The position numbers and the translations under genes are program-made. A stretch of DNA of 36,906 nt from the IMG/VR virus record IMGVR_UViG_638341087_000007, one strand, 5' to 3'. Source of the stretch: a virus. Taxonomy: Duplodnaviria > Heunggongvirae > Uroviricota > Caudoviricetes. Within the stretch, counting starts at the first letter, position 1. Each line of letters starts with the position of its first letter. Below, piece by piece: positions 11,646 to 14,602 of this stretch. The notes beneath the pieces are model-generated. The model was not told where the DNA came from, ran no database searches, and saw only the letters and a list, made by a program, of their open reading frames with translations.

Positions 11646-11677
11646 ACCGGAAAGCATTGTGCTTTCCGGTTTTGTTC
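11646..11677 (+). terminator. rho-independent terminator downstream of the repressor gene
   Basis: Perfect 10-bp stem ACCGGAAAGC/GCTTTCCGGT, 5-nt loop, followed by TTTGTTC. Confidence 0.55.
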
Positions 11678-12440
11678 AGAAGTTGCAGATTACCAGTTCA
11701 CGGCGTGGCGTGGGTTTCCCCGCCAGACTGTAGTTGATATTCACCGTCTGTATGTTCAGTTCAGTGAACACCCGACGCATCTGCGGAATGTCATTCACCG
11801 AGATAATCATCTTTCCTCTGATGCACCGTGCCAGTTCTGCGAGTAGTGTGTAGTTCTCTTCAGGAAAATCCACACCATAGCCTTCCGTCCCCAGATAGGG
11901 CGGATCACAGTAGAACAGCGTGTGCGGACGGTCATAACGCTTAATGCACTGGTGCCAGTCCATGTGTTCTATCACCGTTCTGGAAAGCCGCAGGTGTGCC
12001 GCTGACAGTTCTTCTTCAATCCGTAGCAGGTTGAAGCGTGGCGGGGAGGTGGTGGAGGTGCCGAAGCTGTGCTCTGCCACCTTGCCCCCAAACGCCTGCT
12101 TCTGGAGGTAGTAGAACCGTGCCGCACGCTGGATATCCGTCAGTGTTTCTTCCGGGGTGATCTGCAGCCATTTGTAGATCTGCCGGCTAACCAGCGCCCA
12201 TTTGAATTGGCGGACAAATTCTTCCAGATGATGCTTTACTACCCGATACAGATTTACCAGTTCACCGTTGATATCGTTAATGACTTCGATCTTGCTGGGA
12301 GTCTTGAGAAAATAAAGTGCTGCTGCGCCGCAGAATGGCTCCACATAGCAGGTATGGAGTGGGAACTGAGGCAGAATGTGTTTGGCCAGACGACGTTTTC
12401 CCCCAATCCAGGGGACGATGGGTAAAGATTGTTCTTTCAT
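11676..12440 (-). CDS. Dam-like DNA N6-adenine methyltransferase (orphan)
   Basis: N-terminal PIVPWIGGKRR AdoMet-binding motif and DPPY catalytic motif; the track start at 12521 is a GTG, first ATG is at 12440. Confidence 0.85.
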   Translation of the reverse strand: MKEQSLPIVPWIGGKRRLAKHILPQFPLHTCYVEPFCGAAALYFLKTPSKIEVINDINGELVNLYRVVKHHLEEFVRQFKWALVSRQIYKWLQITPEETLTDIQRAARFYYLQKQAFGGKVAEHSFGTSTTSPPRFNLLRIEEELSAAHLRLSRTVIEHMDWHQCIKRYDRPHTLFYCDPPYLGTEGYGVDFPEENYTLLAELARCIRGKMIISVNDIPQMRRVFTELNIQTVNINYSLAGKPTPRRELVICNF

Positions 12441-12590
12441 TATCTGTAAGCCTTTTTCATTAGATGAAAATGCGATAGGCTTCCCTTGTTCTCGAGAACG
12501 GAAGAGCCTCGGTTGACTCACAGCTCATACCTGTAAGTTGATGACTCGCCTTGTGTTCGCTGCACAAGGTGAGTCGCTCTTTTCATGTTA
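12395..12590. repeat. direct repeat copy A (dam 5' end, leader and hairpin)
   Basis: About 190 bp, by-eye roughly 70% identical to 13029-13222; hairpin at an equivalent position. Confidence 0.6.
12543..12585 (+). terminator. hairpin plus T-tract (terminator-like RNA element) in repeat A
   Basis: 13-bp stem GACTCGCCTTGTG/CACAAGGTGAGTC (one G-U pair on the plus-strand transcript), 7-nt loop, followed by CTCTTTTC. Confidence 0.45.
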
Positions 12591-12634: not shown

Positions 12635-13015
12635 ATGGCCCCAAAAAATATTGAGCGGTTTAATGAAATAGTTGGTGAGATATTTGGGAGACTCTACGAA
12701 TCTTTCCCCGTCAAAATTGATATAAAGGCAGTTGATATCGTTAGACAGAATGAACTTACTTTTTTTCTTGATACCGTAGACTGGCTTAAAAACAGTGGCT
12801 ATTTAATCGGGGCGCGTAGTTCTGGGGGGATCCACAACGCAGTGCTAACGGCTAAAGGTCTTGAGGTATTAAACGCTACGCCTGGAAGTCTGGAAAAACC
12901 GTTGGGGGCCAGAATATCTGACTCTATAAAAATTGAAGGGAAAGAAGCGTTGCGATCACTGGTTAGCCAGACTCTAGGAATAGGTCTGCAATATATGTCT
13001 CGTGGTCTTATGTAA
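12635..13015 (+). CDS. small protein X1 (126 aa), predicted winged-helix-like; paralogue of 13479..13883
   Basis: Shares with X2 the pattern G-x-IF-x-RL ... F-x-DT-x-x-WL ... VLT-x-K-x-L-x-x-LNA-x-P; AT-rich codon usage compared with flanking phage genes. Confidence 0.6.
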   Translation: MAPKNIERFNEIVGEIFGRLYESFPVKIDIKAVDIVRQNELTFFLDTVDWLKNSGYLIGARSSGGIHNAVLTAKGLEVLNATPGSLEKPLGARISDSIKIEGKEALRSLVSQTLGIGLQYMSRGLM

Positions 13016-13075
13016 TATCGCAAGGCAGCGTTTGCCACCAATCCATGGAACGATGGGTAATGTCTGCGTTTTCAT
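12974..13075 (-). pseudogene. dam 5' fragment (second, truncated copy)
   Basis: Minus-strand translation MKTQTLPIVPWIGGKRCL... matches Dam N-terminus MKEQSLPIVPWIGGKRRL...; frame ends after 33 codons and overlaps the X1 3' end. Confidence 0.6.
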
Positions 13076-13222
13076 AATCTGTAAACATTTTACAATTATT
13101 AAAAATATGGCAGGCTAGTCTGGTCTCACGAGACTGACTGAACCTCGGTCGGCTCACAGTGCATTCCTGTGGGACGATGGCCAGCCCGGCTTTCGGGTGC
13201 CGGGCTGGTCGTTCTTTCATGA
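13029..13222. repeat. direct repeat copy B (dam' 5' end, leader and hairpin)
   Basis: Alignable with 12395-12590. Confidence 0.6.
13181..13221 (+). terminator. hairpin plus T-tract (terminator-like) in repeat B
   Basis: 10-bp stem CCAGCCCGGC/GCCGGGCTGG, 8-nt loop, followed by TCGTTCTTTC; same relative position as the hairpin in repeat A but different stem sequence. Confidence 0.5.
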
Positions 13223-13264
13223 TGCGGCAGGGATAGTGGGATTTCTGTTAATGCGGTTTAGGGA

Positions 13265-13480
13265 TTATCCGGGGTGATTTTCTGACCTTATCTGGTCCAG
13301 GGCGTAAGTGAGCCCTTCTGCAAAAACAGAAGTATCAAACTGCTTTTGTATTTCCTGAAAATGAACAGTGGCACGACAGATACTCAGTTCTCCGCGATGT
13401 AACCGGATAATATCTTCCAGAACATTGTTCACTGCTTCAGCACGGCGCTGATGTTCTGTTAACGTTAATCGGGGATTCAT
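13265..13480 (-). CDS. hypothetical small protein (71 aa), uncertain
   Basis: Strong RBS (AAGGAG, 6 nt spacing) but its start codon overlaps the X2 start codon divergently by 2 nt. Confidence 0.3.
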   Translation of the reverse strand: MNPRLTLTEHQRRAEAVNNVLEDIIRLHRGELSICRATVHFQEIQKQFDTSVFAEGLTYALDQIRSENHPG

Positions 13481-13883
13481 GATGCACTCCTTAAATGATG
13501 ATTTTTATGTACTCACCGGCAAAATATTCTGCCGATTACTGAACACGCATCCGGTACCTCAGGTTTTGATTTATTCTGGTTTTTTCGATATCCCGGACCA
13601 GGTTGATCACGACCAGAAAAAGTGCCGGTATTTTATTGATACGCTGATATGGCTTCGGGATAACAGCTATATTCGTTACTCTCAGTTGCTGGCTGTGGGA
13701 GCGGCTGATGTCGTCCTCACGGAAAAAACGCTCTGTCTGCTCAATGCCATGCCGACCTTTCTGCAGCCCCGGCCCGTGCCATTTAAAGAGTCGCTTCTGG
13801 ATGCAGTAAAAACCGGTGAAAATGCAGTCATCGCTGAATGCGTATCCCGGATTATGCGTTACGTGTTTAATGAACGTAAGTGA
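13479..13883 (+). CDS. small protein X2 (134 aa), paralogue of X1
   Basis: Same conserved pattern as X1; GGGGA RBS; 3' end overlaps the convergent NTPase gene by 25 nt. Confidence 0.6.
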   Translation: MMHSLNDDFYVLTGKIFCRLLNTHPVPQVLIYSGFFDIPDQVDHDQKKCRYFIDTLIWLRDNSYIRYSQLLAVGAADVVLTEKTLCLLNAMPTFLQPRPVPFKESLLDAVKTGENAVIAECVSRIMRYVFNERK

Positions 13884-14602
13884 GGTTTATCCGTTGTCTG
13901 CATAATCCCGATAGCCAGTGCGAGGGGAAGCAATTCCGGGGAAACTTTTTCAAACAGCGATTCCCATTCTCCTCTCGCCATCACTCTGTCCAGCCCGCCC
14001 TCCAGCTGCATTTCAGCAATCTTCCTGATTTCCCGGAACAACGCCGCTTTGATCTCTTCATGCTCAGCTTTATTTTCCGGTGTCAGAATGTATTCGTCGA
14101 AGAACCGGGGAGGCTGGTTAACGGGGATTGTGTTCACCGGGATGTGTTCCTGCTTCCCGTACTTCGGGGCCGAAAAACATTCTGTTGGCTGACCAGCGAG
14201 TTTACGTAACTCCTTCATGAGCAGCTCCTGATCGTAAACTGTCATCAGTGCCGCAATGGTGGCATGCAGTGCATCGGGCAGTATCCAGGGTTGCCGGCCC
14301 GTGGGGCATATAACATCCAGCAGCTCATTCGTCCGACAGATACGCTCCTCGCCGTATGACAACAGGCCCTGTCCCGTGTATTCCTCCAGCCTGATCACTG
14401 TGCCAGCCCGTGGCTTCTGCCAGGTCGTCAGATCATCGCCACTCATACGGCGCTCATTCTCCACGTCAGCAGCATCGACAATGACGCTGTTTCCGAGTTC
14501 CTGTTTCACCATCTCTTCTATCCGCGCCAGTACGTAACTTTTACCGCTGCCCACAGGACCGGACACAGTGACAGTGATGACCGGATTCAGTGTGTGCGTC
14601 AT
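13859..14602 (-). CDS. P-loop NTPase, small-kinase-like N-terminal domain with unknown C-terminal domain
   Basis: Walker A VSGPVGSGKSYV near the N-terminus, candidate Walker B VIVDAAD; no further family recognised. Confidence 0.6.
   Translation of the reverse strand: MTHTLNPVITVTVSGPVGSGKSYVLARIEEMVKQELGNSVIVDAADVENERRMSGDDLTTWQKPRAGTVIRLEEYTGQGLLSYGEERICRTNELLDVICPTGRQPWILPDALHATIAALMTVYDQELLMKELRKLAGQPTECFSAPKYGKQEHIPVNTIPVNQPPRFFDEYILTPENKAEHEEIKAALFREIRKIAEMQLEGGLDRVMARGEWESLFEKVSPELLPLALAIGIMQTTDKPHLRSLNT

Follow-up and report, generated by a model that had tools for sequence, protein, structure and literature searches.

We analysed the 36,906-nucleotide stretch of virus record IMGVR_UViG_638341087_000007 (IMG/VR; Caudoviricetes), hereafter the window, with respect to two small plus-strand genes, X1 and X2. 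We propose that X1 and X2 are anciently diverged members of a family of ~140-residue winged-helix cargo proteins, here called FAM (phrog_2266), that FAM genes are usually carried in a cassette in which their start codon overlaps that of a small helical protein, Y, encoded on the opposite strand, and that the two genes of this cassette are expressed reciprocally. Taken jointly, we regard these propositions as about evenly poised between right and wrong.

X1 and X2 in the FAM family

The two genes lie as follows.

12635-13015, plus strand: X1, 126 amino acids, a solo (partner-less) FAM member with its own Shine-Dalgarno sequence, AAAGGGAG
13479-13883, plus strand: X2, 134 amino acids, the FAM half of a canonical head-to-head cassette, with a winged-helix domain (residues ~5-80) followed by three C-terminal helices

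A preliminary description, made from the sequence of the window, had called X1 and X2 diverged paralogues on the basis of three collinear motifs, and both the motifs and the paralogy are borne out at these coordinates. The motif pairs are GEIFGRL/GKIFCRL, FLDTVDWL/FIDTLIWL and VLTAKGLEVLNATP/VLTEKTLCLLNAMP for X1 and X2, respectively. The pairwise and profile alignments by which that similarity was to be checked are significant: the BLASTP alignment covers 120 residues with 28% identity (E = 4e-12), each protein matches phrog_2266 over its full length (X1 over residues 3-122, E = 9.6e-36; X2 over residues 2-133, E = 8.1e-45), and both match our profile of the FAM family with E < 1e-44 (3.6e-50 for X1). 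On these alignments the similarity of X1 and X2 is true homology, well past chance, and since identity is only 28% their divergence is ancient.

FAM is a large family. An exhaustive profile search yielded at least 1,886 matches at E ≤ 0.001, each standing for one 50%-identity cluster, and the 150 best-scoring of these are nearly all 130-160 amino acids long, with a few longer or truncated members and with a single match spanning the profile in almost all. The motifs are kept down to ~25% identity across Enterobacterales, Pseudomonas, Bilophila and Desulfobacteraceae. The predicted topology consists of helix 1, strand 1, a short helix 2, helix 3 and a hairpin wing, and superposes on solved winged-helix domains; a winged-helix fold is thus well supported by a confident model, in agreement with the winged-helix-like signature noted initially. 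A Foldseek search of the Protein Data Bank (PDB) places winged-helix domains on top, none of them significant (nothing below E = 0.08), and the winged helices of cohesin, RPA32 and cullin score as well as the other winged-helix matches. A fold search against the BFVD viral structures returned nothing below E = 0.06, and in a profile search of the PDB the best match to FAM was AspA (E = 0.18), the best MarR-family chain reaching E = 1.2.

A start-on-start cassette with a small helical partner

To describe the surroundings of FAM genes, ~150 loci with relatives were gathered from three sources, namely one genome per species, IMG/VR and named phages. The recurrent neighbour is Y (phrog_25421, matched by the Pseudomonas proteins), a small helical protein that measures 63-97 amino acids across cassettes and 74-97 in the loci examined, with the core QLTG-x-MDWVRAR-x-YW...LAEAL; a profile search of the PDB with Y gave nothing significant. 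Y lies directly upstream of FAM on the opposite strand in ~56 loci and adjoins it in ~72 of 105 FAM loci, FAM being solo in 33. Conversely, an IMG/VR search with Y found FAM adjoining in 42 of 48 loci, and solo Y was found in 4 of 46 loci. Because solo FAM and solo Y both exist, each protein can stand alone.

The two genes begin in a conserved arrangement. A palindromic CATG joins the start codons, which overlap there in 56 of 69 distinct contexts, the Shine-Dalgarno sequence of Y (GGAG) is encoded by codons 3-5 of FAM in 37 of 38 contexts, and that of FAM sits within the first codons of Y. The annotators of phage Midge had independently marked each ribosome-binding site inside the opposite gene. 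FAM is usually opposite in strand to the flanking phage genes, and Y is co-oriented with the flanks in most contexts that contain it.

In the window, the cassette around X2 is composed of the following elements.

13265-13480, minus strand: Y', 71 amino acids, helical partner of X2, divergent from it, with its start codon overlapping that of X2
13478-13481: CATG, the palindromic start overlap, in which CAT is the minus-strand ATG of Y' and ATG is the start of X2
13859-14602, minus strand: P-loop protein (NTPase), 247 amino acids, with an N-terminal Walker-A motif (GPVGSGKS) and a C-terminal Y domain (~13862-14095), convergent with X2

Y' occupies the position that Y holds in the ~56 other loci, and its Shine-Dalgarno sequence, AAGGAG, is located within codons 3-5 of X2. 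It matches phrog_4490 (E = 4.8e-50), and hhalign aligns it with the Y family over a G-x-D-x-x-RA...AE-L core (E = 7.5e-6). Homology of Y' to Y is remote but supported by profile comparison. The P-loop protein, which matches phrog_3787 (E = 2.4e-164) and has weak P-loop matches in Pfam, ends in ~70 residues that match the Y profile with E = 5.8e-35 and are 46% identical to a stand-alone 89-residue Y of Serratia found at the same position. X2 thus lies antisense within a minus-strand unit that runs from the NTPase-Y gene through Y' to dam, and it shares 25 nucleotides with the P-loop gene at the latter's 3' end, an overlap that had been noted before. The preliminary description had paired X1 with dam and X2 with the NTPase gene; neither is the conserved partner as such, a role that falls instead to the small helical Y encoded head-to-head with FAM. 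For X2 it is filled by the 71-residue gene, which that description had left unmentioned, together with the Y domain at the C-terminus of the NTPase. The families phrog_2266, phrog_25421 and phrog_4490 all carry the PHROG annotation 'unknown function', and PHROG leaves these families unlinked; the pairing and overlapping starts of phrog_2266 with phrog_25421/phrog_4490 are newly described here.

Several smaller features of the partner genes were observed. The P-loop protein occurs in lengths of 247, 182 (through an internal deletion), 158 and 141 amino acids, the short forms being without the Y domain (relatives P0193-P0199), and its N-terminal domain seems limited to E. coli and Salmonella; an AF2 model of the 247-residue form, built on a shallow alignment, was unusable (pLDDT 42). 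A subgroup of Pseudomonas Y proteins (loci L010, L013, L039, L055, L064 and L070) carries a cysteine-rich basic C-terminal tail, for example PRGRCCRCC or CRCCRHRG, whose composition suggests metal binding or some modification; the tail is absent from the E. coli Y' and Y domain. The 71-residue gene is flanked by an imperfect 24-nucleotide direct repeat (TTCTGTTAA..GGGATT, 71% identity; 13243-13266 and 13454-13477), the second copy of which holds a perfect palindrome, TTAACGTTAA (13459-13468), 11-20 nucleotides upstream of the X2 start. The palindrome is specific to E. coli and missing from the Serratia relative, and it could be a regulatory site or chance.

Optional cargo of temperate phages

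By its genomic distribution, FAM is optional cargo (a 'moron') of temperate phages, found in Mu-like, lambda-like and P2-like prophages. It is present in some and absent from other related phages, it occupies at least five unrelated insertion sites, and these include recognised hotspots, among them the cos-proximal hotspot of P2-like phages (PMC9122126). The sites are as follows.

Lambda-like Pseudomonas prophages: the TerL and gpW/portal interval
Holin to small terminase (TerS)
Tail tube to tape measure
P2-like phages: the cos-proximal gpA-to-portal hotspot
BcepMu-like (Mu-like) prophages: the repressor-to-lysis interval

In the repressor-to-holin interval of the related Klebsiella phage KP12 (L003 3956-4522), FAM, Y and the NTPase are replaced by a 188-residue DUF2441 protein, which identifies this interval as an exchangeable cargo slot. 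The possibility that BcepMu-like phages use FAM as a core late regulator was also considered; it was rejected, since KP12 is without FAM and FAM also occurs in lambda-like and P2-like phages.

Two further loci are worth recording. In the P2-like Klebsiella phage ST147-VIM1phi7.1 (L107 3799-5798), a head-to-head pair of 64 and 143 amino acids lies in the cos-proximal hotspot. Its immediate neighbour is a reverse transcriptase accompanied by an XRE regulator, an arrangement that looks like a retron-type defence system. On a Pseudomonas tohonis chromosome (L007 4801-9013), a solo FAM lies between proteins of 328 and 767 residues, beside a Bro-N protein; the two flanking proteins have no significant Pfam or PHROG match and no PADLOC match, and the locus could be an unrecognised island. 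More generally, Pfam, NCBIfam and PADLOC scans of Y', Y and the genes adjoining solo copies gave nothing informative. Literature searches on BcepMu with defence, on excludons with prophages and on the RefSeq accessions returned nothing on the Y-FAM cassette, and a search for DUF2513 gave only a passing mention of that family.

Proposed mechanism

We tentatively propose the following account of how the cassette might work. The FAM and Y messenger RNAs would be complementary over both ribosome-binding sites and both start codons. Since there is no upstream non-coding DNA for either gene, each promoter would have to lie inside the other gene, and from this placement together with the complementarity of the two messages it would follow that expression is reciprocal. 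As read from the gene layout, FAM and Y are thus probably not expressible together: co-expression would limit itself, because promoters would be occluded, polymerases would collide and the two messages would form duplexes across their initiation regions. Given the orientation of the genes, transcription of the phage operon would yield Y, and FAM would be produced in the lysogen, in which that operon is silent. There, FAM may use its winged-helix domain to bind a nucleic-acid or protein target, with a regulating or excluding effect, and Y may modulate or antagonise FAM.

A bolder version, which we regard as possible but doubtful, treats the cassette as a self-contained sensor of the prophage state, whose two proteins are encoded from initiation regions that occlude each other. 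A FAM protein made only in the lysogen would block competing phages or lock late functions, Y, made only when the resident phage's operon fires, would be the antidote that spares this phage, and X1 and X2 would represent two specificities.

Several observations weigh against the proposal of reciprocally expressed winged-helix cargo. The phage state in which each gene is expressed is inferred from orientation only. A scan for consensus sigma-70 promoters inside the cassettes of E. coli, Serratia, Midge and a Klebsiella phage found none that was convincing, and no dyad symmetry is centred on the CATG beyond the two ribosome-binding sites. The 63-residue partner in P2-like phages has no significant similarity to Y, and Y' is tied to the Y family by an hhalign probability of 84% and by hidden Markov model E values of 0.0016-0.07. 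PADLOC-DB 2.0 matches neither X1, X2 and the 71-residue protein nor the neighbours of solo copies, and matches the P-loop protein weakly (E > 0.01). Selection at shallow divergence is weak, with dN/dS (the ratio of non-synonymous to synonymous rates) of 0.3-0.9 for X2 and of 1.85 for X1, values that stem from few substitutions (seven for X1), and an in-frame TAG splits one IMG/VR copy of X2 (L036 3393-3797), in which the flanking 71-residue and NTPase genes are intact. Finally, the genes of the fetched loci were delimited by crude open reading frame calls, and the sets of loci are biased by the search patterns.

Alternative explanations

The preliminary description had likened X1 and X2 to MarR/PadR-type regulators. 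In its full form, this alternative holds that they are classical dimeric repressors with operators near the hairpins that bracket X1 or at the divergent junction, controlling dam, the 71-residue gene and the NTPase gene. FAM shares with the MarR, PadR and ArsR families the winged-helix topology and an LT-x-KG turn that leads to the following helix. FAM differs from these in a helix-2 segment that is variable and sometimes nearly absent, in an acidic recognition-helix region and in its C-terminal helical hairpin. None of the Pfam, NCBIfam and PADLOC models matches X1 or X2; neither these two nor 21 relatives match MarR (PF01047/PF12802) at E ≤ 1 or PadR (PF03551), and the relatives yield stray sub-threshold Pfam matches only, none of them to a helix-turn-helix model.

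The charge of the family points the same way. FAM proteins are acidic (median isoelectric point 5.0, net charge -5), the mean net charge being -3.1 in the helix-3 region and -0.5 in the wing, and no column there reaches 40% Lys/Arg, so that neither segment holds a conserved basic residue. Winged helices can also mediate protein contacts, and it is relevant that those of cohesin, RPA32 and cullin match FAM equally well. The acidity tips the balance slightly towards a protein target, or towards non-classical binding of nucleic acids, and away from a classical operator. The lack of dyad symmetry at the junction beyond the two ribosome-binding sites and the absence of the palindrome TTAACGTTAA from Serratia may count further against operators at these places. 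A MarR/PadR-type DNA-binding role for FAM is therefore not supported, the initial resemblance does not extend to membership in either family, and we consider classical repressors an unlikely explanation.

A second alternative takes the Y-FAM pair for a toxin-antitoxin or abortive-infection module, with one toxic protein neutralised by the other, of which the P-loop-Y fusion would be an effector variant. It is true that this is a two-gene cassette of small proteins, that winged-helix antitoxins exist and that the antisense overlap recalls type I systems. The cassette is also located in phage defence hotspots (PMC9122126), including the site beside the reverse transcriptase of ST147-VIM1phi7.1. 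Against this stand the 33 solo FAM genes among 105 loci, X1 among them, and the four loci with solo Y, which argue against an obligate toxin-antitoxin pair and favour FAM as the active factor with Y as its modulator. Type II modules are recognised by co-transcription and obligatory co-occurrence, whereas Y and FAM are arranged divergently and not as a co-transcribed pair; among the PADLOC and Pfam models, none for a toxin or an antitoxin matches them, and a Salmonella relative has lost Y', X2 and the Y domain together while keeping X1. We therefore hold such a module to be quite improbable.

Lastly, that these reading frames are decaying, non-functional passengers whose head-to-head layout is incidental to the insertion of mobile segments could be argued from the high dN/dS at shallow divergence, the in-frame stop in one X2 allele and the shortened P-loop proteins of 182, 158 and 141 residues, but is very improbable in view of the motifs kept to ~25% identity across distant bacterial groups, the confident structure model of a family member and a CATG and ribosome-binding-site architecture retained in three unrelated phage types and at five or more insertion sites.

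Comparison with known systems

The cassette displays individual features of several known systems. The immI region of P22 (mnt/arc-ant, with the sar antisense RNA) is an accessory regulatory module among late genes, in which one small gene runs against the late operon and the other runs with it, with overlapping divergent control and an antisense RNA. Y-FAM likewise comprises one opposite and one co-oriented small gene. However, Mnt and Arc are ribbon-helix-helix repressors, a true operator region separates their genes and an antirepressor gene comes after them, whereas Y-FAM combines a winged-helix protein with an unrelated helical protein across zero intergenic DNA, and no antirepressor was identified.

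Excludons and type I toxin-antitoxin systems are layouts of divergent genes with transcripts that overlap at their 5' ends; excludons use long 5' or 3' untranslated regions, and type I systems pair a messenger RNA with a non-coding RNA. The predicted Y-FAM transcripts would resemble both in being complementary over the two initiation regions, the logic by which mutually exclusive antisense control is defined. They differ in that both RNAs encode conserved proteins and in that the overlap is centred on two start codons. The opposite-strand, prophage-expressed morons bor of lambda and old/tin of the P2 cos-proximal hotspot are also optional cargo at operon junctions or beside cos, running against the late genes, but they have no sequence relationship to Y-FAM, for which there is no PADLOC match. 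DUF2513 (PF10711) is a small phage and bacterial winged-helix-like family, and three relatives are named 'DUF2513 domain-containing protein' in UniRef. Its model matches one of the 21 relatives at a sub-threshold E = 0.073 and does not match X1 or X2, and no function is assigned to DUF2513 itself.

The start-on-start layout is an unusually compact route to mutual exclusion that recurs in three unrelated temperate-phage lineages and in defence hotspots. Should expression prove reciprocal, the cassette would offer a simple, portable genetic toggle and, with self-immunity built in, a new class of accessory function for prophages. Should it not, the cassette would still mark a large blind spot in prophage annotation: the X2 cassette is carried by ~9% of complete E. 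coli genomes, yet its two proteins are unnamed and have neither a Pfam model nor a phenotype.

X1, the dam remnant and the flanking hairpins

X1 lies in a region of different history, with the following features.

11676-12440, minus strand: dam, intact, a D12-class N6-adenine methyltransferase (PF02086, E = 1.5e-27; RefSeq coding sequence of 254 amino acids)
12542-12576, plus strand: hairpin 1, an intrinsic terminator followed by a U-tract, from a terminator scan (folding free energy -26 kcal/mol, z -5.9)
13019-13264, minus strand: dam' remnant, comprising the first 19 codons of the common dam allele (13019-13075) and its native upstream region
13179-13210, plus strand: hairpin 2, an intrinsic terminator (folding free energy -32 kcal/mol, z -4.9) followed by UCGUUCUUUC

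The placement of X1 between an intact dam and a dam' fragment, as first described, is correct. The 5' copies of dam form a 97-nucleotide direct repeat of 72% identity, and the remnant, which matches the 5' end and upstream region of the common dam variant of E. coli, aligns closely with the 5' end of dam in E. coli ABU 83972. On the minus strand beyond the CATG of X1 there is an open reading frame of 11 codons only. The closer relatives of X1, in Serratia quinivorans and Brenneria, are co-directional and lie behind a repressor gene. Judging from these sequence relationships, X1 is a rare solo import, brought by a recombination in dam that duplicated the dam 5' end. Its arrival by this route makes the adjacency of X1 and dam uninformative on function. 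The earlier idea of a duplicated regulator serving different cargo therefore stands in so far as X1 and X2 are homologous copies; a local duplication for two cargos does not, given 28% identity and the rare import of X1.

Salmonella has the same arrangement of dam, hairpin, X1, dam' and hairpin at ~95% identity. In one Salmonella relative, the deletion that took Y', X2 and the Y domain left X1 together with a 158-residue P-loop stump. This 158-residue protein was considered as a native partner of X1 and rejected, because it is the same NTPase shortened by that deletion.

Both hairpins are more stable on the plus strand, and a Serratia equivalent of hairpin 2 is found at the same position (L004 5737-5770). 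Hairpin 1 is predicted to insulate X1 from upstream plus-strand transcription, and hairpin 2 to end the X1 unit and insulate the Y'-X2 cassette. Because plus-strand hairpins with U-tracts bracket X1, X1 and X2 would form separate plus-strand units, and because a terminator stands ahead of the cassette, the X2 promoter would have to lie inside the antisense of Y'. Of these two strong hairpins, one precedes each dam 5' copy, the plus-strand terminators pointing away from dam. On the minus-strand message the hairpins would fall in the leader between the 71-residue gene and dam, and they might also affect dam translation or stability.

The host prophage and its distribution

The window region is identical to a prophage of E. 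coli M-17 and of three further complete E. coli genomes. This is a BcepMu-like, transposable E. coli prophage, in which a transposase (in RefSeq, integrase catalytic domain-containing protein) is followed by Ner-like and repressor genes and then by the variable interval with X1 and X2, beyond which lie genes for a holin, an SLT lysin, a Mu gp27-like protein, the terminase and a Mu-type portal. The segment with the 71-residue gene and X2 is present in 499 of 5,426 complete E. coli genomes, and X1 in only 6 of them. Comparison of the window with further copies in E. coli gives a synonymous divergence of 0.25-0.5 for dam (11676-12440) and of only ~0.02-0.1 for X2, the 71-residue gene and the NTPase gene (13265-14602), so that the locus is a mosaic whose recombination boundary falls within or close to dam.

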